From the IMG/VR virus record IMGVR_UViG_3300045988_037272, positions 1 to 42,899 of that record: a stretch of 42,899 nucleotides of DNA; one strand, given 5' to 3'. Numbering within the stretch: the first letter of the stretch is position 1; every line of letters begins with the position of its first letter. The notes beneath the pieces are model-generated. The model searched no databases, had not been told where the DNA came from, and worked only from the letters and a program-made list of their open reading frames with translations. Made by a program: the position numbers and the translations under genes. The DNA is from a virus. Shown here in pieces: positions 2,854-12,174 of this stretch.

Positions 2854-3159
2854 ATGGGAGATTTGGCAAGGGTCGCGTCGGTGTGCTCGGAGATCACGGT
2901 CATTTTGGGCGCGCTGGCGCTGCTCATCAAGCCGCTGCGCAACAAAATCCTCGGCTTTGACAAGCTGACGGACGCGCTCAAATGCGAGCTGCGGCACGAC
3001 ATGCTGCATACATACTACCGGCACAGAGAGGACAAGTTCATCCGGCAGTATGAGCTTGAGGACTTTTTGTACCTCTACAGGGGCTATAAGGCGCTGGGCG
3101 GCAACAGTTTTATCGACAAAATCAAGTCCGAGATCGACGAATGGGAGGTCAGGACGTGA
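2854..3159 (+). CDS. Small membrane protein of the lysis cassette (one N-terminal TM segment)
   Basis: SD AAGGGAG. Hydrophobic segment VASVCSEITVILGALALLI. First of three membrane proteins upstream of the endolysin. Confidence 0.65.
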   Translation: MGDLARVASVCSEITVILGALALLIKPLRNKILGFDKLTDALKCELRHDMLHTYYRHREDKFIRQYELEDFLYLYRGYKALGGNSFIDKIKSEIDEWEVRT

Positions 3160-3401
3160 AGCACCTTATCAAAAAGGTATCGAAATTGCGAACGAGGAAC
3201 ATCATTTTGATTATCGTTGGCATTTTCATCGCCGCTTTTGTGATCTACACGGTCATATTTTACAGCATCAAGGGGTGGCAGTGGGACAACATTTTCCCGT
3301 ATCTGCTGGGTACGGGCGGCATTATTGAAGCCTTTACCGGGCTTCTGACACTGGTGGAAATTATCGTTGGAAGACGAAAGGAGAAGAAAAATGAAATTTG
3401 A
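3156..3401 (+). CDS. Holin-like membrane protein (two TM segments)
   Basis: GTG 3156 lies 7 nt after GGGAGG and overlaps the upstream TGA. Two hydrophobic helices (NIILIIVGIFIAAFVIYTVIF; GGIIEAFTGLLTLVEIIVG) and a charged C-terminus RRKEKKNEI. Confidence 0.6.
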   Translation: MKHLIKKVSKLRTRNIILIIVGIFIAAFVIYTVIFYSIKGWQWDNIFPYLLGTGGIIEAFTGLLTLVEIIVGRRKEKKNEI

Positions 3402-3615
3402 AATGAGCAACAAGGTATACGACGTCCTCAAGTGGCTGGTGCTTATCGTACTGCCCGCCTGTTCCGGCCTCTACGCCGCGCTCGCGGGCGTGTGGGGCTG
3501 GGGCTATGTCGAGCAGGTGACGACCACCATCAGCGCGATTGCGCTCTTCATCGGCGCGCTCATCGGTGTGTCGACGTCCAGCTACAACAAGGAGAGCAAA
3601 AATGTATCACAGTAG
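3391..3615 (+). CDS. Holin (LL-H/Dp-1-like small holin of Firmicutes phages)
   Basis: ATG 3391 follows AAAGGAGAAG. KVYDVLKWLVLIVLPACSGLYAALAGVWGW plus a second TM segment. Lies immediately upstream of, and overlaps, the endolysin gene. Confidence 0.65.
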   Translation: MKFEMSNKVYDVLKWLVLIVLPACSGLYAALAGVWGWGYVEQVTTTISAIALFIGALIGVSTSSYNKESKNVSQ

Positions 3616-4210
3616 GGACATTGCCGACTTGCGCGCGGACGTGCGGCGAAACTGCGCCATTTTTCTCGACCTCTGCAAGGAGGCGGGGCTTCCGGTTCTG
3701 GTGACCGAGACGGTCAGGGATAACGAGTACCAGCGCTATCTTGCTGCAAACGGCTACGCGGCAAAGACCGCGACGCGCCCGACGTTTCACGGTGTCAAGG
3801 CTGGGCTTGCGTTCGACATCTGCAAAAACGTCAAGGGGCATGAGTACGACGATCCGTCGTTCTTCGCCCGCTGCGGGCAGATCGGCAAGCAGGTCGGCTT
3901 TTCGTGGGGTGGCGACTGGAAGAAGTTCCCTGACAAGCCGCATTTTCAGTGGGACGACCATATGCGATACACAGGGAGCATGATTTTGGCGGGCAAGTAT
4001 CCGCCGGAAATGGAGGAGTATATGGACCAGGCAACGTTTAACAAGATGATGGACAGCTATTTGGCGCAGCTCGGCACCAAGCCCGTCTCTTCGTGGGCGG
4101 CCAAAGACTGGGCGGCGGCAAAGGCTATGGGCATTACAGACGGCAGCGCGCCGCAGAGACTTATCACGCGGCAGGAAGTCGTGACGATGATCCAGAGAGC
4201 GACAAAATAA
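3602..4210 (+). CDS. Endolysin, peptidase M15 (VanY / L-Ala-D-Glu peptidase-like) with SLH-like C-terminal repeat
   Basis: ATG 3602 follows AAGGAGAG. Motifs VTETVRDNEYQ, HGVKAGLAFDI and FSWGGDWKKFPDKPHFQW match the Zn-ligand pattern of the M15 family. The C-terminus WAAKDWAAAKAMGITDG..ITRQEVVTMIQR resembles an SLH/cell-wall-binding motif. Confidence 0.8.
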   Translation: MYHSRDIADLRADVRRNCAIFLDLCKEAGLPVLVTETVRDNEYQRYLAANGYAAKTATRPTFHGVKAGLAFDICKNVKGHEYDDPSFFARCGQIGKQVGFSWGGDWKKFPDKPHFQWDDHMRYTGSMILAGKYPPEMEEYMDQATFNKMMDSYLAQLGTKPVSSWAAKDWAAAKAMGITDGSAPQRLITRQEVVTMIQRATK

Positions 4211-4286: not shown

Positions 4287-4532
4287 ATGGACAGTCAGCA
4301 CAGGTCAATCCGCGCGCAATTATCCTCTATGGCCCCCAAGCGGGCCGTGGCGTATATCTTATCGTTTGAGCTGCCCGAGGACGAGGCGGCGTGCATCATT
4401 GAGTGCGACGTGCGGCGTAAGAGTTACGCGCAAGTGTGCGATGCGCTGCACCTGTCGCCGGAGGCAGTCAACCGCTGCCGCAGGCGGGCATACAAAAAAA
4501 TCGCAGATGGACAAAGAGAGCACCGATGTTAA
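4287..4532 (+). CDS. Small sigma-70 region-4-like HTH protein
   Basis: The SYAQVCDALHLSPEAVNRCRRRAYKKI pattern resembles sigma region 4/LuxR-type HTH. No convincing SD precedes ATG 4287, so the start is uncertain. Confidence 0.5.
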   Translation: MDSQHRSIRAQLSSMAPKRAVAYILSFELPEDEAACIIECDVRRKSYAQVCDALHLSPEAVNRCRRRAYKKIADGQREHRC

Positions 4533-4555
4533 TCGGTGCTCTCTTTTCGTTTTTT
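4515..4555. terminator. Rho-independent terminator shared by convergent genes
   Basis: Perfect 13-bp stem agagagcaccgat/atcggtgctctct with a 4-nt loop, followed by tttcgtttttt. The stop codons of both convergent ORFs (4530-4532 plus strand, 4529-4531 minus strand) lie in the loop. Confidence 0.85.
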
Positions 4556-4720
4556 CTTGTTGCAGTGCTTTTCCAGGTATTCCCTGGCGCATTCTGCGAG
4601 GTAACTGCATTTCCATCCTTCGGCGGTATTCAGGCCGCAATTTCCGCAGTCACGGCATTTTCTAAATTCTTCGAGGATCGCTTCTGCTTGGGTTTCGCTT
4701 GCAATAAAAAAGCTGCTCAT
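4529..4720 (-). CDS. Small Cys-rich protein (63 aa)
   Basis: ATG 4720 follows GGGAG. CRDCGNCG...WKCSYLAEC...HC cysteine pattern. Last gene of the minus-strand cassette. Confidence 0.6.
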   Translation of the reverse strand: MSSFFIASETQAEAILEEFRKCRDCGNCGLNTAEGWKCSYLAECAREYLEKHCNKKKRKESTD

Positions 4721-4736
4721 TTGATCCACTCCCTTG

Positions 4737-5018
4737 TTACAACAAAGATTTTGCATCTACGCCGAGCACGTCGGCAATGGCAATCAAGTTCCTGGCCGTC
4801 AAATTCCCAGCGTCGGATTCTCCCAGCTCCACGCGCTGGATCTGGCGGATATTTACGCCGGATTTATCGGCGAGGCTGGTCTGCGTCATGTCTGCCATGC
4901 GGCGGGACCACTCAAGCTTGGTAATGGGACGGTTGTGGCAGTCGCGCCCGCAGTTGACCAAGGAGCAGACGGTGCAATCGCCGTCTTCTCGCTGGCAGTC
5001 AGCATATTTCCTGCGCAT
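4737..5018 (-). CDS. XRE-family HTH regulator with Cys-rich N-terminal extension
   Basis: ATG 5018 follows GGGAGGG. N-terminus C..EDGDC.VC...NCGRDCH, then MTQTSLADKSGVNIRQIQRVELG....NLTARNLIAIADVLGV (HTH_3-like). Confidence 0.7.
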   Translation of the reverse strand: MRRKYADCQREDGDCTVCSLVNCGRDCHNRPITKLEWSRRMADMTQTSLADKSGVNIRQIQRVELGESDAGNLTARNLIAIADVLGVDAKSLL

Positions 5019-5031
5019 CAGTTGCCCTCCC

Positions 5032-5226
5032 TCAGAGTTTGATTTCCGGCGCGTAGTAAAGCATCTCGCACTCCCGGTATTTCGCGCCGACGGGTTTCCT
5101 GACAATGGCGGTCGTTTCTTCTCCGGTTGCCCGCTTGATGAGCGCGTAGCCGTAAAAATAACCGTCTTCCACAAAGTTTTCGCCGGGGGCCTGTTCCAAT
5201 TTCCGGATCAATTCCTCTTTCTCCAT
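5032..5226 (-). CDS. Hypothetical protein (64 aa)
   Basis: Track ORF with SD GGAGGAAAG before the ATG. Second gene of the cassette. Confidence 0.6.
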   Translation of the reverse strand: MEKEELIRKLEQAPGENFVEDGYFYGYALIKRATGEETTAIVRKPVGAKYRECEMLYYAPEIKL

Positions 5227-5239
5227 TGTTCTTTCCTCC

Positions 5240-5509
5240 TTATTTTAAATAGCGATTGGTCTGGGAAACCACAGCCATGCCAACCTTGCCCGGGGTGTCG
5301 TTAAAATTCACGAAGCGAAGTACGTCAATCAACTTGCCGGCATATTCTACGGAGTTAATGCGGCCGATCTGGAAGTCAATTCCCTTGTTCCACATTTCGA
5401 TGTTTGCCTTACCGGGGTCACTGGGGTTCTCTCTCATCCACTCTAATGCGGCGATGGACTTCGCTTTTAGTTCTTCGGCCCACGCAATCTGTTTCTCAGT
5501 ACCCTTCAT
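5240..5509 (-). CDS. Hypothetical protein (89 aa)
   Basis: Track ORF with SD AAGGAGGAG. First gene downstream of the consensus promoter at 5550-5578. Confidence 0.65.
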   Translation of the reverse strand: MKGTEKQIAWAEELKAKSIAALEWMRENPSDPGKANIEMWNKGIDFQIGRINSVEYAGKLIDVLRFVNFNDTPGKVGMAVVSQTNRYLK

Positions 5510-5549
5510 AGTTCGCTCCTCCTTGGGTTTCCCCTCTCTTTATGCTCTT

Positions 5550-5578
5550 ATTATACGCTAATATTAGCGTAATGTCAA
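5550..5578 (-). promoter_or_regulatory. Consensus sigma70-type promoter (TTGACA-17-TATAAT) with an 18-bp perfect palindrome in the spacer
   Basis: The minus strand reads ttgaca ttacgctaatattagcg tataat. The palindrome tacgctaat/attagcgta occupies 5554-5571. Confidence 0.75.
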
Positions 5579-5677
5579 GGGATTTTTGAAATATTTTTTG
5601 ACCAAACAATGACCAAACTGCGGCTAAATGCAAATGGCAGTTTGCGATACCATAGACGTAACAAAGGAGGTGCGGCG

Positions 5678-5818
5678 ATGTACGACCGACTTTTAGCTGT
5701 GGGATTTACCGAGCAGATGGCAATGGACATTTTGACGCTGTTCCCCGACCCTGACGAGCTGAGACAGTACGTTTATTTTGCCGAGCTATTCCACGCCTGC
5801 CGAGAAAGGACGGAGTGA
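5678..5818 (+). CDS. Hypothetical small protein (46 aa), first gene of cargo operon
   Basis: ATG 5678 follows AAAGGAGG. The stop overlaps the start region of the next gene. Confidence 0.55.
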   Translation: MYDRLLAVGFTEQMAMDILTLFPDPDELRQYVYFAELFHACRERTE

Positions 5819-5819
5819 T

Positions 5820-6212
5820 ATGCCTTATCCGTATTATCAGACCCCGTATCAGCCGATGGGCTACGGGTACAACAACTATGCCCCTGTAAGCGCGCAGAGC
5901 GCCGCAGGAGCGCAGCAGATATACAGCGGTCAAATTACCCGCGTGAATGGGAGAAACGGTGCAGACGCGCTCAGGCTCGCGCCGAACAGCTCCGTTTTGC
6001 TGATGGACGAGAACGACCCAATCGTGTGGCTCAAAGTGACGGACGGCGCGGGATATGCAACGGTCACGCCGTACAGCATCGCGCCGTATCAGGCGGCGGC
6101 TCCGGTTGACGTTAACAGTCTTGAGGAACGCGTAAAGAGATTGGAGGAAAAGCTCAATGCCAAATCCGATGATGCAAATGCTGATGGGCGGCGGAAGCAG
6201 AAGGCCGAATAA
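5820..6212 (+). CDS. Tyr/Pro-rich N-terminus protein with beta-rich core and C-terminal coiled coil (130 aa)
   Basis: ATG 5820 follows GGAG. MPYPYYQTPYQPMGYGYNNYAPV..., then ITRVNGRNGADALRLAPNSSVLLMDENDPIVWLKVTDGAGY, then LEERVKRLEEKL. Confidence 0.65.
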   Translation: MPYPYYQTPYQPMGYGYNNYAPVSAQSAAGAQQIYSGQITRVNGRNGADALRLAPNSSVLLMDENDPIVWLKVTDGAGYATVTPYSIAPYQAAAPVDVNSLEERVKRLEEKLNAKSDDANADGRRKQKAE

Positions 6213-6375
6213 TCCCCTTGCGATGATGGCAGAGTTTCGCAAATTCGCAGCGGGCATGACGCCGCAGAAAGCACAGCAGGAGATCGAGCAGCTTTTGGCG
6301 TCAGGGAAAATGTCGCAGGAGCAGTTTCAGCAGCTCCAACAGCAGGCAAAAGACTTTATGCAATTTTTGAAATAA
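6157..6375 (+). CDS. Met/Gln-rich small protein (72 aa)
   Basis: ATG 6157 follows GGAGG. Overlaps the 3' end of the previous gene by 56 nt in another frame. Confidence 0.55.
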   Translation: MPNPMMQMLMGGGSRRPNNPLAMMAEFRKFAAGMTPQKAQQEIEQLLASGKMSQEQFQQLQQQAKDFMQFLK

Positions 6376-6407
6376 GCTGGGTCGACACGGTTTATTGATA
6401 AATTATT

Positions 6408-7064
6408 TTGAAAGGAGTGTTTCCCATAGATAATTACTCTTTGAGCGATCTCGCGGCAGTGACCCGCGATAACGACGGTAACGGCTGGGGCTCCGGTTGG
6501 TTCCTCATCGTCGTTCTGTTCCTGTTCATGTTTGGTTTCGGCGGAAACGGCTGGAACCGTCAGGGCGAATTTGGCCAGTACGCCACCGCTGCGAGCCAGC
6601 AGGAAATCTTGTTTGGCCAGCAGTTCGGGCAGATCAACGACCGCCTGACTAACATCGGCAACGGCATCTGCAATCTCGGCTACGAGATGCAGGGCAACAT
6701 CGGTCAGCTCGGCAAGGAGGTTGCGCTTGCGCAGGCAGGCACCAACACCACCATCATGCAGACCGGCAACAGCATCCAGAGCCAGATCGCGTCTTGCTGC
6801 TGCGAGCAGCGCCTTGCGACGGCCAATCTGTCCGCGCAGATGGATCGTCAGACCTGCGACATCACCACGGCTATCCACGCCGAGGGCGAGGCTACTCGCG
6901 CGCTGATGCAGGCCAACGAGATGCAGGCTCTCCGCGACAAGGTGGCAAGCCTTGAAATGGACAACCGTATGTGTGGCGTTGTCCGCTATCCCAGCGGGCT
7001 GACATACAATGCGGGTAGTTCCCCCTTCTGTGGCTGCAATAGCGGCTGCAACGGCAATATCTGA
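6408..7064 (+). CDS. Membrane protein with Gly/Trp-flanked TM segment, coiled-coil region, CCC motif and Cys/Gly-rich C-terminus
   Basis: Track ORF. GNGWGSGWFLIVVLFLFMFGFGGNGW, ...IASCCCEQR..., ...SSPFCGCNSGCNGNI. The start is uncertain: SD AAAGGAG (6411-6417) is followed at 8-nt spacing by ATA 6426, while TTG 6408 and GTG 6417 precede or overlap the SD. Confidence 0.65.
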   Translation: MKGVFPIDNYSLSDLAAVTRDNDGNGWGSGWFLIVVLFLFMFGFGGNGWNRQGEFGQYATAASQQEILFGQQFGQINDRLTNIGNGICNLGYEMQGNIGQLGKEVALAQAGTNTTIMQTGNSIQSQIASCCCEQRLATANLSAQMDRQTCDITTAIHAEGEATRALMQANEMQALRDKVASLEMDNRMCGVVRYPSGLTYNAGSSPFCGCNSGCNGNI

Positions 7065-7164
7065 GCAACTATTTCCAAACCGGAAACAGTTCAGGCCCTC
7101 TTTGGCCGGGTAAATGGGCGAGGGCTTATCCCCTCGCCCTTATATTTTGAAAGGAGACTTTACC

Positions 7165-7566
7165 ATGTCTTGTAAATCCGCTCTTTACACTGCCATGCAG
7201 ACGCCGACTGCGGTTGCCGTCGATGGCGTTATCCCCCTTGGCAGCCTGATCCGTCGCTACGGCTGCGATATCACGCTTAACGGCAATGCCGTCAACATCG
7301 TCGGCAAGGGCTATTACGACGTTGACGCGTCTATCACCGTCGCGCCGACGGCAGCAGGCACAATCACGGCGACGCTTTATAAGGACGGCGTTGCCGTTCC
7401 CGGCGCTACCGCTTCTGCTGCGGGCGCTGTCGGTGCTCCTGTCGTGCTGGCATTCCCCGCGCTGGTGCGTCAGGCGTGCTGCGCGTCCGGCGCTGCGCTG
7501 ACGCTGGTGCTGACCGGCGCGGCATCGACCGTCAGCAACGTTGCCCTGCGCGTGCAGCGCATTTGA
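7165..7566 (+). CDS. BclA C-terminal-domain-like (C1q/TNF-like jelly-roll) protein, 133 aa
   Basis: ATG 7165 lies 8 nt after GAAAGGAG. The pattern ITLNGNAVNIVGKGYYDVDASITVAPTAAGTITATLYKDGVAVPGA....GAPVVLAFPALV....LTLVLTG....SNVALRVQRI parallels the BclA CTD strand pattern (recognised by eye). Confidence 0.55.
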   Translation: MSCKSALYTAMQTPTAVAVDGVIPLGSLIRRYGCDITLNGNAVNIVGKGYYDVDASITVAPTAAGTITATLYKDGVAVPGATASAAGAVGAPVVLAFPALVRQACCASGAALTLVLTGAASTVSNVALRVQRI

Positions 7567-7567
7567 T

Positions 7568-7777
7568 ATGCAACCGGACGAGCAAGGGCTTGAATTTCTT
7601 GATATCCTGACGGTCTTATCGTTTGTGCTGCAGCTGCAAAACCAGTCAAAAATATTTGGGTTGCAAGAAGTGCAGAACGACAATAACCGCGTGGCACAAG
7701 AGATACACAAGCACCTTGAATCGCAGGACGAAAAAATAGACCGAATATTGGAGGTGTTAGCCCATGAAACTAATTGA
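7568..7777 (+). CDS. Hypothetical small protein (69 aa)
   Basis: ATG 7568 lies 1 nt after the upstream stop. LDILTVLSFVLQLQNQ hydrophobic segment followed by a coiled coil. Confidence 0.55.
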   Translation: MQPDEQGLEFLDILTVLSFVLQLQNQSKIFGLQEVQNDNNRVAQEIHKHLESQDEKIDRILEVLAHETN

Positions 7778-8072
7778 AAAACTATCCGAGATGATCGAAG
7801 AAGAGATCGAAGATGCTGAGAAGTACGCCAAGTGCGCGCTGAAGTACAAGGATACCGACAGCGCTCTTGCAAAGACTTTTTACGACCTGTCGACCGACGA
7901 GATGCGGCACATGAATCTGCTGCACGATGAGGTCGCGCGCATCATCACCCAGTACCGCAAGGAGACCGGCGAGCCGCCTACCGCGATGCTGGCTGTATAT
8001 GACTATCTGCACGGAAAGCAGATCGAAAAAGCGAAAGAGGTCAAAGACTATCAGGCAATGTATCGCGGGTGA
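7764..8072 (+). CDS. Ferritin-like/rubrerythrin-like small protein (102 aa)
   Basis: SD GGAGG. EEEIEDAEKY...STDEMRHMNLLHDE resembles the E...E..H di-iron helix-pair motifs of ferritin-like proteins. Confidence 0.55.
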   Translation: MKLIEKLSEMIEEEIEDAEKYAKCALKYKDTDSALAKTFYDLSTDEMRHMNLLHDEVARIITQYRKETGEPPTAMLAVYDYLHGKQIEKAKEVKDYQAMYRG

Positions 8073-8383
8073 CGCCCATGATCGACTTTGACGAGATTGA
8101 GAAAGAGATCATCAACATGGAAGCAAACCGCGACACGTCTTATGCCACGATGGAGAGATTAGCCCCTCTCTATGCCGCTATGACCTACAAGCGGCTCTGT
8201 GCCAATCCAGAAGTGTACGAGCCGCAGGCCGTGTCTGCGGTTGGAGACAGCGCATTTTTGCTTGCCGTCAGCGGCATGGACAGCGTCAAGGCGTGGGAGA
8301 TTATGGACGAGTTGATGGACAGTTTGAAAATTGTAAACGAGCGCGTCTATAATAGCGTCATGCGAAAGCTTGGTAGCGAGTAA
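8069..8383 (+). CDS. Hypothetical protein (about 101-104 aa), last gene of cargo operon
   Basis: Track ORF. GTG 8069 overlaps the upstream TGA; ATG 8078 is an alternative start. Confidence 0.55.
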   Translation: MTPMIDFDEIEKEIINMEANRDTSYATMERLAPLYAAMTYKRLCANPEVYEPQAVSAVGDSAFLLAVSGMDSVKAWEIMDELMDSLKIVNERVYNSVMRKLGSE

Positions 8384-8485: not shown

Positions 8486-8552
8486 CTCCCCTGCTAAGGG
8501 AGTAGGACGTGTAAAAAGCGTCGCGGAGGTTCAAATCCTCTCTTCCGCGCCA
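8486..8552 (+). other. attP core: 3' two-thirds of a tRNA-Ser(GCU) (anticodon arm, long variable arm, T arm, acceptor 3' strand, G73, CCA)
   Basis: ctccc-CTGCTAA-gggag (anticodon GCT at 8493-8495, U33 and A37 present). Long variable arm gacgt..gcgtc. T arm ggagg-TTCAAAT-cctct. cttccgc-g-cca ends at 8552. No matching 5' acceptor strand (gcggaag) or D arm lies upstream, so this is a fragment. Confidence 0.7.
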
Positions 8553-8561
8553 GTTCGAAAA

Positions 8562-8596
8562 AACCTTGGAATCTCAACGGTTCCAAGGTTTTTTCT
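8562..8596 (+). terminator. Rho-independent terminator directly after the tRNA-like fragment
   Basis: Stem aaccttggaa/ttccaaggtt with a 9-nt loop, followed by a T tract. Confidence 0.8.
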
Positions 8597-8708: not shown

Positions 8709-9851
8709 TCATTTGTCATTACGACTAAGCTGATTAACCCCTTTATGCGCGGCTTCGGTGGAAACATGGACATATCGTTGTGTCGATGATAACTTTGCGT
8801 GGCGCATAATCTGTTGCAGCACGGGCAGCTCTACGCCCTTTTTAACGGCCTCTGTAGCCGTTGTGTGGCGGCAGGAGTATGGATTTAGGTCTCGCACTCC
8901 AACCGCGCTTGTAGTGGCGTGATAGGCCGTATAAAAGGTATTTTCATCGCCACCAAATATCTTTCCCGTTTTGCTGGTAGACTTTTCGCTTAACTCTTGC
9001 AGCACCGGTGCAATGAACTCAGGGAAAACGATAGGGGTATCTTTTCTTTTCTTTGTCTTTTTCCCGCAGCCGTAAATTTCAAGCCGGTCATAGTCAATCA
9101 TATCAGATTTGCACGCAAGCAATTCTCCCGGCATCATTGACGTGTAGATCATTAGCAGCATATAGCCGACAAAAACATTCCCTTCGTCCCATGCTTTCCA
9201 CATGGCGTTGACTTCGTCTTCGGTAAATGGTTCGGGGACTTTTTCTTCCAGCTCAGGCAAAACAATAAATCGCGACAGATTAACGGTTACTGGCCCATTG
9301 CTACCGCCGCTTGCCATAGCGCGCTTGTATAGATGAGATAGCAGGGACTTCATGTCTCGAGCGGTATAATATGACTTTGCTGCGGAGTTTACCGCGCCTT
9401 GTAGATCATCAATCGTTAGCTCATCTATTTTCCGGGCTATAATCGGTTCTAAACGCTCACGAGCTTTTTTGAATGCTATTTGCTTATCCTTTGACCGTGT
9501 CAGCATATCGTTTTCGCTCCACCCTTGCCAAAGCTCTAAGAGGGTCGGAGCTTCTTTTTGGAATTTTCCAGGGTCTTGAGAAGCGGCCCATTCCAAAGCA
9601 GCAGTTTTTGTAGGGAATCCCCCTTTAGTAGGCCTTCGACGAATTAGTCTAGGGGGTCCATCGTCGTCTTGCACGGTATATGAATATCCGGCAGCTTGAG
9701 CAGTCCATGTCTTACCGCGCCGAAAAGCTGTCCCCGTCCCGCTTCCGCGCTGTCTTCCACGCCGCTTTTCGACTATCTGCTTTTTGCCGCACATAGGACA
9801 AAACAGCGCGCCATCCGGCAGCGCTGCTTTACATTTGATGCAGTTTCCCAT
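8709..9851 (-). CDS. int: Tyrosine integrase with N-terminal zinc ribbon
   Basis: ATG 9851 follows GGAGGGG. N-terminus CIKC...CPMC. C-terminus SCRHTTATEA....IMRHAKLSSTQRYVHV (R, H-x-x-R and Y catalytic signature). Adjacent to attP. Confidence 0.9.
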   Translation of the reverse strand: MGNCIKCKAALPDGALFCPMCGKKQIVEKRRGRQRGSGTGTAFRRGKTWTAQAAGYSYTVQDDDGPPRLIRRRPTKGGFPTKTAALEWAASQDPGKFQKEAPTLLELWQGWSENDMLTRSKDKQIAFKKARERLEPIIARKIDELTIDDLQGAVNSAAKSYYTARDMKSLLSHLYKRAMASGGSNGPVTVNLSRFIVLPELEEKVPEPFTEDEVNAMWKAWDEGNVFVGYMLLMIYTSMMPGELLACKSDMIDYDRLEIYGCGKKTKKRKDTPIVFPEFIAPVLQELSEKSTSKTGKIFGGDENTFYTAYHATTSAVGVRDLNPYSCRHTTATEAVKKGVELPVLQQIMRHAKLSSTQRYVHVSTEAAHKGVNQLSRNDK

Positions 9852-9852
9852 G

Positions 9853-10266
9853 TCAGCCCCTCCAAAAACCATAGTCGGTGCAGTGCAGATCGATATACAC
9901 GCACCATGCGGCCAGCAGCACCACCGCGATGAACAAAATTAAAATCACGCCGTTGCGGATGCGGACGCCACGCCGCATGATCTCGATCATGTCGGCTTTT
10001 GCATCAACGTGGCGTTCCAATTCGTCATTACGCGCCTGCAATGTTTCCTCGGTCGGCGTCAAGTGTTCGGAAATCCCGAACACTTCATCAAGAGATATTC
10101 CCATTGCCTTGCAGATCGGCGCGACAGTGTAGATCGATGGTGCTTTGGAAAACTTAGAAAAGAAATTCTGCACGGTGGACAGTGGCACGCCGGAAGCGTT
10201 GGAAATGTCTTGATATGTTAGTTTCAGTTCTTCTTTACGGATTCTGCACACTTCTTGAATGTTCAT
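9853..10266 (-). CDS. XRE-family HTH protein with C-terminal transmembrane anchor
   Basis: LTYQDISNASGVPLSTVQNFFSK...ICKAMGISLDEVF is the HTH. A coiled-coil linker follows, then GVILILFIAVVLLAAWCVYI as the TM segment. The stop lies 1 nt before the int ATG, so the two are co-transcribed. Confidence 0.8.
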   Translation of the reverse strand: MNIQEVCRIRKEELKLTYQDISNASGVPLSTVQNFFSKFSKAPSIYTVAPICKAMGISLDEVFGISEHLTPTEETLQARNDELERHVDAKADMIEIMRRGVRIRNGVILILFIAVVLLAAWCVYIDLHCTDYGFWRG

Positions 10267-10435
10267 TTATGCCACCTTAATTTCTCCGATTTTTGCGCCG
10301 CAAAGTCGCAAGATATGGGTTTGTCGAACCACGTCGAGCGCTGTCTTATTGCAATGTTTCGGCATTGAATTACCAAACCAAAGTGGGCTACGGTGAAGGC
10401 AAGCAGCGGCGACCGCTCCCCGCTGGCTGCAAAAA

Positions 10436-10469
10436 GGCCCCGCCGTTTGTTGCAGAGGGCGGCGGGGCC
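10436..10469 (-). terminator. GC-rich hairpin; T tract only on the minus strand
   Basis: Stem ggccccgccg/cggcggggcc with a 14-nt loop. aaaaa lies 5' on the plus strand, giving ttttt after the stem on the minus strand. Confidence 0.55.
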
Positions 10470-10553
10470 TTACTTGGAGATATTGATGCTTGCACCGCTA
10501 TGTGCAACAATTGACATATAGCCCCGTTACTATAAATATTGGAGGGACACAAA

Positions 10554-10742
10554 ATGTTGTGTAATAGCGCGAAAGATGGTACAATAAAAAAGCAGATTAT
10601 GCGGAAAGACAATAAAAACAGCAAGAACGATCAAGCTTACCTTGAGGAATTGCGCGGGCAAATCCTTGGAATGATAGACAAGCTATCTGCTGCGGATTGC
10701 GCAGAAGTATTTTCAAAATTAAAAGAAAGAGGTGTGCTATGA
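10554..10742 (+). CDS. Hypothetical small protein (62 aa)
   Basis: ATG 10554 follows GGAGGG. AT-rich region. Confidence 0.5.
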   Translation: MLCNSAKDGTIKKQIMRKDNKNSKNDQAYLEELRGQILGMIDKLSAADCAEVFSKLKERGVL

Positions 10743-10930
10743 AGGGCTACGAGATTGACATTTCCAAGTTGGCAGAGAACAGCATCATCATGAAAGGCCA
10801 GATCAACGACGTTGTATTTGGATTGAAGGAAATCTCAGACAAGATCGACACGCTAATCGCGCTCAAGCAAGTTGAATTATCACTCCTGCAACAGCAGCGA
10901 GCGCCGCAATGCCAGAAAGAACAGCAGTAA
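10739..10930 (+). CDS. Hypothetical small coiled-coil protein (63 aa)
   Basis: ATGA overlap with the upstream gene; SD AGAGGTG. Its 3' end overlaps the convergent minus-strand ORF 10863..11054 by 68 nt. Confidence 0.5.
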   Translation: MKGYEIDISKLAENSIIMKGQINDVVFGLKEISDKIDTLIALKQVELSLLQQQRAPQCQKEQQ

Positions 10931-11054
10931 TAATGAATTGCGTTTTCTCGCGCCGTTCTTTTTCTGCTTGATCTTTTTGCTGCCGCTCATGGTCTTTTCG
11001 CTCCGCTTCGGTTTTCATGCGGTCTTGCGGATTTGATGGGTAGAACGTAAGCAT
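10863..11054 (-). CDS. Tail-anchored small membrane protein (63 aa)
   Basis: TAATG coupling to the repressor-like gene. Charged N-terminal half, then C-terminal TM segment FIITAVLSGIAALAAVAGVIIQL. Confidence 0.6.
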   Translation of the reverse strand: MLTFYPSNPQDRMKTEAERKDHERQQKDQAEKERREKTQFIITAVLSGIAALAAVAGVIIQLA

Positions 11055-11497
11055 TACATCAACTCCCGCATTTTTTTACTAAGCTCATCGAAAACGGCAA
11101 GCGCCGTATCTTTATCGGTTATTCCTCTGACAGCTTCAATAAGCGCGTCTTTTTCGCCCTCGTCCTCTGTGGCGGGGGCGTTTTTTATGCCCTCGGCCTC
11201 GACCAGTTTCCGCACCGTCTCGATATCCTCTAAGCACTTTGCGGTTTCTTCCGGGGTTTTCCCCTCGTGCAGGAGAATGTCATCTGGGGAGACGTTGAGG
11301 GTTAAGCACATCTGCACGGCAATTTCTTTTGACGGCAAGTTTGTATTTTTCCCTCTGCGCAGATCAGACACCCATCTATTGTTTTTCCCAAATTTTCGAG
11401 AAAATGCGGCTTCGCTAATATCTTTTCTTTTGCAATAAGTCTCTATAAATTTAATGCAATCATTACTAAGAGTAACGCTATTTAATGTTTTCGGCAT
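11054..11497 (-). CDS. CI-like repressor candidate (HTH, XRE-like)
   Basis: N-terminal HTH-like segment (ISEAAFSRKFGKNNRWVSDLRRGKN.NLPSKEIAVQMCLTLNVSPDDIL) plus an acidic C-terminal domain. Divergent from the cro-like gene across a 270-bp switch region. Confidence 0.65.
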   Translation of the reverse strand: MPKTLNSVTLSNDCIKFIETYCKRKDISEAAFSRKFGKNNRWVSDLRRGKNTNLPSKEIAVQMCLTLNVSPDDILLHEGKTPEETAKCLEDIETVRKLVEAEGIKNAPATEDEGEKDALIEAVRGITDKDTALAVFDELSKKMRELM

Positions 11498-11508
11498 ATT
11501 AAATTCCT

Positions 11509-12174
11509 TTAGATTATATTTACTCCGTCTAATGCCGCTTGGGCTAATATTTTTTGATAGTTTTTAGAATTAGAGTTTTTCATTCTGGAATATTCGGATA
11601 ATGATTTTGGGCACAATGCAGGGAGATATTCTTGCAATCGATAATATTCATGTCGAATGGAACGCTTTCTGATTCTTTCTTCTTCCATTTCTTTGATTAA
11701 ACGCTTCCATTTGAAATATGCAAATACGTTTGGGAAATCTTTTATGGAGAGATGCGGGTATATTCCGACTTTTTGAAAATAGGAATCCACTCGCGATTCT
11801 TCTTCCCATGCTTGCTTATGTGCGCCTAAATTGTGTAAATGCGATATGTCAGATATGTAAGCATCGTACTTCCAAATCATATCCGATATAAACATTAAAC
11901 TATGTGCTTTTCTTACACATTCTACAGCAAGTGCAACATTTTTTTCTTTGTAGTATTTTGAAAAACACTGACCGCGCAAATAATATTCTACACGACCCGT
12001 AGGGGAATCTCCGTTCACTTCTACGCATGGGACAGGGATATTCTTTATCCCCTCAACGGTTGAAAAATCATAAAAACTTTTCAATCTAACGACCTCTTGT
12101 TCTCTTATTTGAGAATAAGAGGCGTTTTTTTCTTCGAGCGTTTTAGATTCGTCATCAAAAATATTGCAAGCCAT
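11509..12174 (-). CDS. Orphan 221-aa protein, first gene of the repressor operon
   Basis: Track ORF. Markedly AT-rich by eye compared with the genome. No motif I can assign; no HExxH, so not ImmA/IrrE-like. Confidence 0.7.
   Translation of the reverse strand: MACNIFDDESKTLEEKNASYSQIREQEVVRLKSFYDFSTVEGIKNIPVPCVEVNGDSPTGRVEYYLRGQCFSKYYKEKNVALAVECVRKAHSLMFISDMIWKYDAYISDISHLHNLGAHKQAWEEESRVDSYFQKVGIYPHLSIKDFPNVFAYFKWKRLIKEMEEERIRKRSIRHEYYRLQEYLPALCPKSLSEYSRMKNSNSKNYQKILAQAALDGVNII

Follow-up and report, generated by a model that had tools for sequence, protein, structure and literature searches.

Several described systems share one trait or another with the eight small genes, g1 to g8, analyzed here. 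The genes all lie on the plus strand, within positions 5678–8383 of a 42,899-nucleotide (nt) virus sequence (IMG/VR record IMGVR_UViG_3300045988_037272, the whole of which we call the window), between an endolysin gene and a tRNA-like phage attachment site (attP) with its integrase gene. The window resembles the circularly permuted genome of a temperate phage. In organization, the block recalls the lambda Q-tR'-lysis and moron units: it likewise consists of a small regulator gene, a terminator and the genes controlled, is bracketed by terminators, and is not bound to one position. The regulator is of another kind, however: sig4, as we call it, is a sigma region-4/LuxR-type helix-turn-helix (HTH) protein, not a Q protein. 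The i-spanins (lambda Rz, P2 LysB) share their layout, and a frequent adjacency to lysis genes, with g4, but not their sequence.

Other likenesses are at the level of single proteins. The C-terminal domain of BclA and the head of F-BclA (PF18573; 1WCK, 3TWI, 9H38) resemble g5 in size, in forming a single jelly-roll domain, and in a profile match of near full length. Unlike them, g5 stands alone, is encoded by phages, including phages of non-sporulating hosts, has neither a collagen-like stalk nor an exosporium leader, and carries an N-terminal Cys. Endospore appendage subunits are assembled in the cytoplasm and have no signal peptides. Ena1A/B and F-ENA share with our proteins a design of small beta-rich subunits, with Cys-bearing terminal extensions able to cross-link and a C1q-like tip protein (PMC12357932), but neither g5 nor the Cys-rich family that takes its place in other loci matches the Ena or DUF4183 families in sequence, and the hosts concerned are mostly not spore-formers. 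Within the ferritin-like superfamily (bacterioferritin; encapsulated half-ferritins), g7 resembles a half-ferritin in its E...ExxH half-site and its helical length, but its scores are borderline, it is accompanied by no encapsulin shell gene, and its iron binding is putative. Finally, PHROGs 21718, 22984, 16490, 17454 and 17879 and the Pfam family DUF7841 hold, respectively, the g2, g3, g4, g8-like, ferritin-like tail and DUF7841 proteins—all under ‘unknown function’—and none of these entries records one ordered cassette.

One ordered cassette is what we find: the block is a single copy of an autonomous accessory cassette of gut viruses. Searched by tblastn, g4 has homologues in phages of Clostridium perfringens and of the lemur and rodent gut, with neighboring genes alike in size, composition and order. 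From such matches we compiled 171 loci, which besides the window comprise 10 phage records and 80 contigs each from IMG/VR and GTDB, and defined the family at each slot with iterative hidden Markov models (HMMs). Since every locus was collected through its match to g4, g4 is present in all 171 by design. The order is sig4, a terminator, g2, g3, g4, a second terminator or attenuator, a small beta-rich protein (g5 or the Cys-rich alternative), and then a variable tail. The family of sig4 is represented in 138 loci, g2 in 161, g3 in 154, and one or other beta-rich protein in 165; more than 150 loci have g2, g3, g4 and the beta-rich protein together and in fixed order. An initial annotation of the window had proposed that the genes form a conserved set and a candidate undescribed system, and both proposals are borne out. 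No component has a characterized homologue beyond the level of fold, every source name is ‘hypothetical protein’, and the literature that we searched, on DUF7841, BclA in prophages, PF18573 and C. perfringens phages, contains nothing on the genes of the cassette. What was already known is confined to the fold level, for sigma region 4, BclA_C and ferritin-like proteins; the remaining families are catalogued solely as PHROGs or DUFs of unknown function. The cassette fails the defining features of every system tested, and we rate it a new kind of system.

The cassette moves among unrelated phage backbones and genome positions. Near-identical eight-gene sets are paired with a CHAP lysin and a tyrosine integrase, or with a serine recombinase, or abut host genes. 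About 29 of the 82 distinct upstream neighbors carry lysin domains, in other cases the cassette follows a tail protein of >800 amino acids (aa), and a tyrosine or serine integrase adjoins the cassette in 20 of the 83 distinct downstream neighbors. In C. perfringens phages the cassette lies in the replication-gene region, amid genes for antirepressor, Gam and RecT; in Dulem virus 36 it has the receptor-binding protein gene on one side and replication genes on the other, and the annotation read there, 50 of 53.8 kb, shows no integrase; and in other contigs it separates tape-measure-like from baseplate-like genes. Contigs labeled as siphoviruses, myoviruses and podoviruses all contain it. This independence of virion type, together with a regulator and insulators of its own, marks it as an autonomous accessory unit rather than an ordinary structural set. 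The position annotated in the window, between lysis genes and attP, is correct, with a Peptidase_M15_4 endolysin on one side and the tRNA-like core and integrase on the other. The conclusion that this is lysogenic-conversion cargo specifically does not follow, because of the copies in Dulem virus 36 and in the replication region of the C. perfringens phages; plaque-isolated phages, too, contain it.

The hosts are as varied as the positions. Host-labeled contigs include ones assigned to Dialister (a contig of 2.5 Mb), Megasphaera, Phascolarctobacterium, Coprococcus, Dysosmobacter, Treponema (six) and Gastranaerophilales (six); some bin labels of phage-sized contigs may be wrong, but those that recur are unlikely to be. 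In crAss-like phages, DUF7841 and g4 homologues are adjacent, beside genes annotated as holin and LysB/FtsL-like (HMM E=8e-40 and 9e-30). The cultured Bacteroides uniformis phage C3_41T2LP likewise has both, and further g4 homologues are found in viruses assigned to Methanomassiliicoccales archaea. In these crAss-like, Bacteroides-phage and archaeal-virus versions the partner genes are similar in size and composition but not detectably homologous; a proposal that the Bacteroidales partners belong to the g2 or the Cys-rich family found no support from hhalign. All identifiable sources of the cassette are gut samples or gut organisms.

The cassette is present in thousands of gut-virus genomes, and every component of it is annotated as ‘hypothetical’. 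We know of few accessory modules that span both bacterial and archaeal viruses, and both crAss-like and Firmicutes phages, and one so widespread probably addresses something common: the lipid membrane, egress, competition or the gut environment. A broad reading that seems to us plausible, if a little short of probable, is that of a mobile gut-virome machine, under a sigma-region-4-type activator, that builds a new membrane-active or fiber-like structure stabilized by Cys or metal, in viruses of Firmicutes, Negativicutes, Spirochaetes, Melainabacteria, Bacteroidales (crAss-like) and methanogenic archaea; as part of it, the cassette may be a relative, or the source, of BclA/Ena-type spore-surface proteins, a possible evolutionary link between phage proteins and those of exosporium and appendages. 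Homologues in cultured C. perfringens phages and a cultured Bacteroides phage make the function directly testable, and the cassette offers a compact regulator-plus-promoter pair for use in anaerobes.

The genes themselves are real. Selection was gauged from the ratio of nonsynonymous to synonymous substitution rates (dN/dS) between genes of the window and their relatives, and at 0.05–0.2 for g1–g5, g7 and g8 it is purifying; g6 has too few substitutions for such a reading. They had been described as eight partly overlapping plus-strand genes, each preceded by a Shine–Dalgarno (SD) sequence. All eight are plus-strand open reading frames (ORFs), and g1, g2, g3, g5 and g7 have SD sequences, but g6 has none and the start of g4 has to be shifted (Table 1). 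None of the eight products reaches the curated threshold in Pfam, NCBIfam or PADLOC, and none matches a phage family of known function, a defense family or an enzyme family in these databases or in PHROG, where g2, g3 and g4 fall in families of unknown function. Sub-threshold Pfam matches are limited to BclA_C (g5) and Rubrerythrin (g7), and the sole PADLOC match, ZorB for g6 (E=0.012), is insignificant. The opinion that nothing in the block looks like a phage structural or replication function agrees with these family scans, which returned no virion, replication or defense-family homologues. The compositions reported for the products are accurate, too: a Tyr/Pro-rich arm and a core in g2, Met/Gln-richness in g3, and a hydrophobic segment, a CCC motif and a Cys-containing tail in g4.

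Table 1. Cassette of the window and its flanking features
Feature	Position	Strand	Remarks
Peptidase_M15_4 endolysin	3539–4210		Upstream of block; preceded, to judge from position, by tail-region genes
sig4, 81-aa sigma-70 region 4-like protein (LuxR/GerE-type HTH)	4287–4532	+	Pfam Sigma70_r4_2
Intrinsic-terminator-like hairpin and T-run	4513–4546	+	At end of sig4
Two exact TGACCAAAC direct repeats, 11-bp period	5599–5618	+	Candidate site for sig4 (activator)
TACCAT, -10-like element	5648–5653	+	~25 nt 5' of g1 start; no canonical -35; putative promoter
g1, 46 aa	5678–5818	+	ATG 5678; SD AAAGGAGG
g2, 130 aa	5820–6212	+	ATG 5820, preceded by AAAGGACGGAG
g3, 72 aa	6157–6375	+	ATG 6157 after GGAGGA; 56-nt overlap with g2
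g4, 212 aa	6426–7064	+	ORF opens at TTG 6408; SD AAAGGAG 6411–6417, 8 nt before ATA 6426
Terminator- or attenuator-like hairpin, 9 bp (8 GC), and T-run	7116–7149	+	Between g4 and g5
g5, 133 aa, stand-alone BclA-C / C1q-TNF-like jelly-roll, N-terminal Cys	7165–7566	+	ATG 7165 after AAAGGAG
g6, 69 aa, hydrophobic N-terminal helix and coiled coil	7568–7777	+	ATG 7568, one base after g5 stop; no SD
g7, 102 aa, half-ferritin-like	7764–8072	+	ATG 7764 after GGAGGTG; overlaps g6
g8, 101 aa, helical	8078–8383	+	ATG 8078, 5 nt after g7 stop
tRNA 3'-end-like sequence (T-arm, acceptor, CCA)	8523–8552	+	Probable attP core
Strong terminator, 17-bp stem	8557–8595	+	Closes cassette
Tyrosine integrase	8709–9872	-	Beyond non-coding stretch downstream of g8

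The signature protein is g4 (phrog_16490), whose family comprises 4314 clusters at 90% identity and 844 representatives at 50%. It has no match in Pfam or in a profile search of the PDB. Its layout is that of a hydrophobic segment flanked by Gly and Trp, a helical region with invariant cysteines (C82, CCC124–126 and C144), and a C-terminal Cys cluster. The 15-residue hydrophobic core is conserved (mean Kyte–Doolittle hydropathy 2.18), and its flanks are Gly/Trp-rich and acidic, with only 0.9 lysine or arginine residues on each side. The likeness to YjcZ-type sporulation peptides once seen in this segment is not supported: there is no NCBIfam match at E<=1, and g4 has 212 aa where the YjcZ peptide has ~30–50. 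Its true start is most likely ATA 6426 rather than TTG 6408, to judge from the alignment, in which the equivalent codon is ATG, GTG or TTG in relatives, behind the same SD sequence, and ATA in all nine loci of the window's sub-lineage. So rare a start codon may throttle translation of g4.

Two variants of g4 deserve mention. Homologues from Bacteroidales phages and archaeal viruses (L178, 5756–6679; L181, 4725–5642; L180, 4650–5573) are ~90 residues longer and have, just before the hydrophobic segment, a Met-rich segment of g3-like composition. The phmmer match is marginal (E~3e-4 in a set of 111 sequences), and the extension may represent a g3–g4 fusion. In locus L095, a 375-aa ORF (5238–6365) joins a putatively DUF4417-like N-terminal region in frame to a g4 homologue; this is either a genuine fusion or an artefact of ORF calling. 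Two of the crAss-like genomes, Buchavirus cr52_1 (L178) and cr109_1 (L179), have ORFs with in-frame stops under translation table 11, and so use a recoded genetic code. Automatic labels there call g4 homologues ‘spike protein/glycoprotein’ or ‘outer capsid protein/viral fiber’, and DUF7841 ‘RNA polymerase sigma factor/ubiquitin-like’; all are probably misleading.

What might such a cassette do? Our tentative preference, which we would call possible but doubtful, is that it builds, on or within the infected cell's cytoplasmic membrane, an anchored structure stabilized by Cys or metal, and that this acts at the envelope late in infection. The products in the window look like assembly parts, and no enzyme domain was detected among them. 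g4 would be the core of the structure. With no positively charged flanks, its hydrophobic segment looks less like an ordinary signal anchor than like a latent element for membrane insertion or anchoring, and the Met/Gln-rich g3 may shield it until use. The Cys-bearing helical part of g4 would form an oligomeric stalk, the C-terminal Cys cluster of which might pair with g5, a trimeric jelly-roll cap, at its Cys-bearing N-terminus. The role at the envelope could be associated with egress or related to superinfection. We look to the envelope because the lipid bilayer is the sole target that monoderm, diderm and archaeal hosts obviously share; the cassette is, moreover, often beside lysis genes in two unrelated phage groups.

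A good deal weighs against this proposal. An egress role would be redundant, because the window phage and many of its relatives already have canonical holin and endolysin genes, and a strictly late role is a poor fit for the cassettes of C. perfringens and Bacteroides phages, which lie amid early or replication genes without sig4. As g5 and g2 have no signal peptides, the structure would have to form on the cytoplasmic side of the membrane, or after lysis. The AlphaFold2 (AF2) model of g4, from a shallow alignment, has a predicted local distance difference test score (pLDDT) of 45, which leaves the stalk and the g4–g5 contact hypothetical. A holdase role for g3 may be suggested by its composition, and the Met-rich extension of the Bacteroidales g4 is only marginally g3-like. 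The proposal, finally, leaves the ferritin-like proteins and DUF7841 unexplained. The probability left over from it and from the rivals discussed below belongs to something else.

The layout of g4 invites a narrower explanation, that the cassette is an accessory device for lysis or egress, akin to a spanin or fusogen, with g4 acting like Rz or P2 LysB, or as a late membrane-disrupter timed by sig4. The hydrophobic N-terminal segment of g4, its long helical region and its conserved cysteines would, by analogy, suit an i-spanin; lambda Rz is the model for this comparison. The cassette lies directly 3' of the endolysin gene in about one-third of the distinct loci and, in crAss-like phages, beside genes with holin and LysB-like annotations, and its succession of regulator, terminator and genes recalls lambda Q-tR'-SRRz, some sig4 proteins even having weak Q-like matches (Pfam Phage_antitermQ, E=0.005; PHROG ‘anti-termination protein Q-like’, E=8e-5). 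Against it, phages of monoderm hosts and archaeal viruses, which have no need of a spanin, carry g4 or the cassette; canonical holins are already present; the crAss-like phages with the cassette have a separate LysB-like gene; and some copies occupy early regions. No lipoprotein partner was noticed among the cassette proteins read, none of which opens with an obvious lipoprotein signal, although no lipobox scan was made. We consider this explanation quite improbable.

The 81 aa of sig4 match Sigma70_r4_2 above the cutoff (E=3.4e-9; 36.7 bits versus 25.7) and hold region 4 only; there is no region 2, so this is not a complete sigma factor. The gene is single-copy in the window and, in other loci, nearly always immediately 5' of g2, and we presume it to be the dedicated regulator of the cassette. 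Between sig4 and g2, a hairpin and T-run are found in 50 of 67 distinct intergenic regions, compared with 9 in shuffled controls. The stems are unrelated in sequence; therefore the structure itself is conserved. Downstream, the TGACCAAAC box has no further exact copy in the window beyond the two listed; it occurs three times in L091, and in other lineages different boxes keep the 11-bp period, one of them TGGCG(T/C), in three or four copies. Most lineages have a -10-like element ~25–35 nt 5' of the first cassette gene, with no canonical -35, and in several of them such repeats precede it. The element is TACCAT or TATCAT in the window's nearest relatives and TACAAT, TATAAT or TATACT at the equivalent place elsewhere. 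We infer that sig4 would bind the 11-bp-spaced direct repeats and turn on the -35-less promoter just 5' of g1/g2; that the repeats precede such a promoter suggests activation rather than antitermination. With a sig4-activated promoter, and with the terminator after sig4 insulating it from the lysis genes, the cassette would be a transcription unit of its own. The block as first delimited, 5678–8383, thus contains real genes but is incomplete: sig4, its terminator and the repeats belong to it as well.

This layout—a terminator upstream, a promoter of its own and a strong terminator downstream—is moron-like, and would also suit a superinfection-exclusion or immunity membrane complex, made from the prophage and early in lytic infection, that blocks the entry of competitors' DNA. 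The initial annotation had entertained something similar, in the form of a surface or immunity structure of the lysogen. In many temperate phages the cassette is close to attP and integrase, and in virulent-looking phages it is amid early genes; these are the usual positions of exclusion genes, such as T4 imm and sp, P22 sie and the lactococcal sie genes. The hydrophobic segment of g4 points to the membrane, and in L006 a remnant cassette has been kept at a tRNA att site after the rest of the prophage was lost. However, the cassette has five to eight proteins, whereas the exclusion systems known to us have one or two small ones, and we know of no precedent in them for jelly-roll, ferritin-like or low-complexity partners. 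There is no significant PADLOC match. Further, sig4, located 3' of the lysis genes, lacks an evident promoter, which predicts silence in the lysogen if sig4 is required. Exclusion is, in our judgment, distinctly unlikely.

The L006 locus (9401–11912 of a 655-kb metagenomic contig) consists of six genes, g2–g5, g7 and g8, between an IS3-family transposase gene and a tRNA-Thr gene, in chromosomal surroundings. It was considered as a stand-alone chromosomal cassette, and is instead what remains of a prophage, next to the IS3 element and an att site at tRNA-Thr.

Of 102 distinct intergenic regions downstream of g4, 69 contain a second hairpin and T-run (3 in shuffled controls). This looks like attenuation, because the spacers are too short for a new promoter, and by lowering read-through it would leave g2, g3 and g4 in excess over g5–g8. 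The slot beyond it is filled by g5-type proteins in 85 loci and, in 80, by an unrelated beta-rich protein of 110–135 aa, with Cys-rich N- and C-termini, that has no match in a profile search of PDB sequences; homology between the two families is unsupported by hhalign. The profile of g5, built from 21 sequences, matches 9H38 (E=1.6e-6; query 3–132 of 136 positions), 3TWI (3.4e-5) and 1WCK (8.7e-5), the latter two being BclA, and a C1q-related structure (0.04). Window g5 itself scores 17.4 bits (E=0.004) with PF18573, under the cutoff of 38, and many homologues at 62–92% identity carry a precomputed PF18573 match. The g5-type profile extends to 6154 clusters, possibly including chromosomal BclA_C proteins from outside the cassette. 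9H38 shows the C1q-like head of F-BclA, which forms the tip fibrillum on the endospore appendages of Bacillus thuringiensis, and the heads of BclA and F-BclA are trimeric in the structures reported (PMC12357932). On these profile matches g5 belongs with the BclA_C/C1q-TNF-like proteins at the level of fold or superfamily, as had been suggested for it.

Heads of the C1q/TNF-like type are ligand-binding modules, and the assignment of g5 to this type accords with a virion fiber or adhesin in which g4, anchored like reovirus sigma-1 through a hydrophobic N-terminus, forms the coiled-coil stalk and g5 the head, the fiber decorating particles and binding gut glycans or particles. Unrelated viruses would have passed such a fiber on horizontally, as an adaptation to the gut environment. 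The gut-only identifiable sources and the spread over host phyla and domains are what a function directed to environment, not host, would lead one to expect; the attenuator after g4 suits the stoichiometry of major and minor subunits; the cassette is often 3' of tail-fiber genes; and a crAss g4 homologue is labeled ‘viral fiber/spike’, albeit automatically. Yet siphovirus, myovirus, podovirus and crAss-like occurrences offer no evident common docking site, and in some phages the cassette is hosted by early or replication regions. It has no fixed place within the structural gene block, nor any structural PHROG or Pfam match, and, unlike structural genes, it has its own regulator and terminators. 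A strongly hydrophobic segment of 15–20 residues would also be unusual in a soluble virion fiber. We regard a fiber as unlikely, though deserving of serious weight.

The kinship of g5 also bears on the reading first given to the block, as a module of lysogenic conversion whose products join the coat or exosporium of the sporulating lysogen. Its closest solved kin, within the BclA_C/C1q-like superfamily, are exosporium or endospore-appendage proteins; the cassette encodes Cys-rich and Tyr-rich proteins; the HTH of sig4 is of the GerE/LuxR type; and the -10-like box of the window contains CATA. The reading fails on its hosts. Dialister, Megasphaera, Phascolarctobacterium, Treponema and Gastranaerophilales contigs carry the cassette, g4 is found with DUF7841 in crAss-like phages, and it occurs in a Bacteroides phage and in archaeal viruses. 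None of these bacteria sporulates, and nor do the Methanomassiliicoccales; because most hosts of the cassette do not, we reject the spore-surface reading. Dulem virus 36, as far as it was read, has no integrase with which to form a lysogen. g5 lacks an exosporium leader and GXY or collagen repeats (no Collagen or leader family match), and YjcZ and CotJC matches are wanting among the other products. The sporulation-sigma promoter that was to be looked for upstream of 5678 did not materialize either: the CATA-containing box is accompanied by no conserved sporulation-type -35, and in other lineages the -10 element is TAcAAT or TATAAT. That the block is a spore-coat module is very unlikely, its probability being close to negligible.

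Of the genes before g4, g1 is limited to the window's lineage (8 loci; dN/dS 0.06–0.11). g2 (phrog_21718) looks like an assembly part, with a prion-like disordered arm and a coiled coil. In its AF2 model, based on 63 sequences, residues 40–90 form a small alpha+beta domain with pLDDT >90, followed by a helix (98–114), and the N-terminus is disordered and rich in Tyr, Gln, Asn and Pro. The structure prediction and fold searches recommended in the initial annotation were informative only in part. The g2 core is predicted with confidence, but Foldseek found no PDB match with E<0.3, and resemblances to SH2 and to a tailspike N-terminus, which do not reach that level, were judged to be noise; for g5, the fold came from the sequence profile. 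Against BFVD, the g2 model matches uncharacterized gut-phage proteins only, and a g2 profile has no match among PDB sequences. g3 (phrog_22984, E=4e-13) belongs to a family with 16% Gln and 10.6% Met overall; residues 1–30 have 16% Met, 15% Gln and 12.5% Asn.

The tail is the least constant part of the cassette. Among the 171 loci its components are DUF7841 (99), g7 (28), g8 (24), g6 (21) and a ferritin-like protein of 175–260 aa (16). g6 is optional: the loci that have it include Dulem virus 36 and C. perfringens phages, and the 85%-identical loci L004–L007 have none. g6 and g8 look to be translationally coupled to the preceding gene. In g7, E14, Y21, E46 and H49 are invariant, forming the E...ExxH half of a di-iron motif. 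Its scores are borderline (PDB bacterioferritin, E=0.0036; TM1526, E=0.006), and that with Pfam Rubrerythrin (E=0.015) is below the cutoff. Of the earlier description of g7 as ferritin- or CotJC-like, the first half stands, at superfamily level, and the second does not, there being no Pfam Mn_catalase match at E<=1. The longer ferritin-like tail protein matches a PDB ferritin (E=6e-5), and its full set of ligands is not conserved. g8 is kin to a 131-aa protein of C. perfringens phages (BLASTP E=4e-5; phrog_17454). Homology of g7 to DUF7841 or to the longer ferritin-like family, and of g8 to DUF7841, was considered and found no support from hhalign. Many DUF7841 proteins (L102–L170, L178–L181) end in long low-complexity tails rich in Arg, Tyr, Asp and Glu, for example ...RRGRRRYRNESDD...YRNDDR...; Bacteroides phage C3_41T2LP has a tail of this kind in a gene of its own, of 77 aa.

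Beyond the tail, ARAGORN finds no complete tRNA at the tRNA-like sequence. Loci L174 and L175 contain a near-identical cassette followed by a different tRNA-like core, different integrases (tyrosine or serine), and then the same terminator. The attP call is reasonable, because in relatives with other integrases this spot is occupied by a different tRNA-like core. On this sequence comparison, the integration module has been replaced and the cassette retained.

Two further groups of genes lie near the cassette in the window. Ahead of the endolysin gene, at 2854–3328, two overlapping small ORFs, of 101 aa (phrog_4105, unknown function) and 92 aa, are probably holin genes, though neither has a holin-family match. 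Between the sig4 terminator and the cassette's repeats and promoter sits a minus-strand block of ~1 kb (4529–5590), with genes at 4529–5509 for proteins of 75 aa (Cys-rich, with a weak DUF5981/zinc-ribbon-like match), 145 aa (HTH_3, XRE-type), 64 aa and 89 aa. It has a perfect sigma-70 promoter (TTGACA-17-TATAAT, 5578 to 5550), and in it a perfect 18-bp palindrome, TACGCTAATATTAGCGTA, at ~5555–5572. This block has no counterpart in the closest relatives, and L172 and L173 carry a different minus-strand HTH_3 block at the same spot. The site may be a hot spot for insertion, or the block may be a repressor of the cassette.

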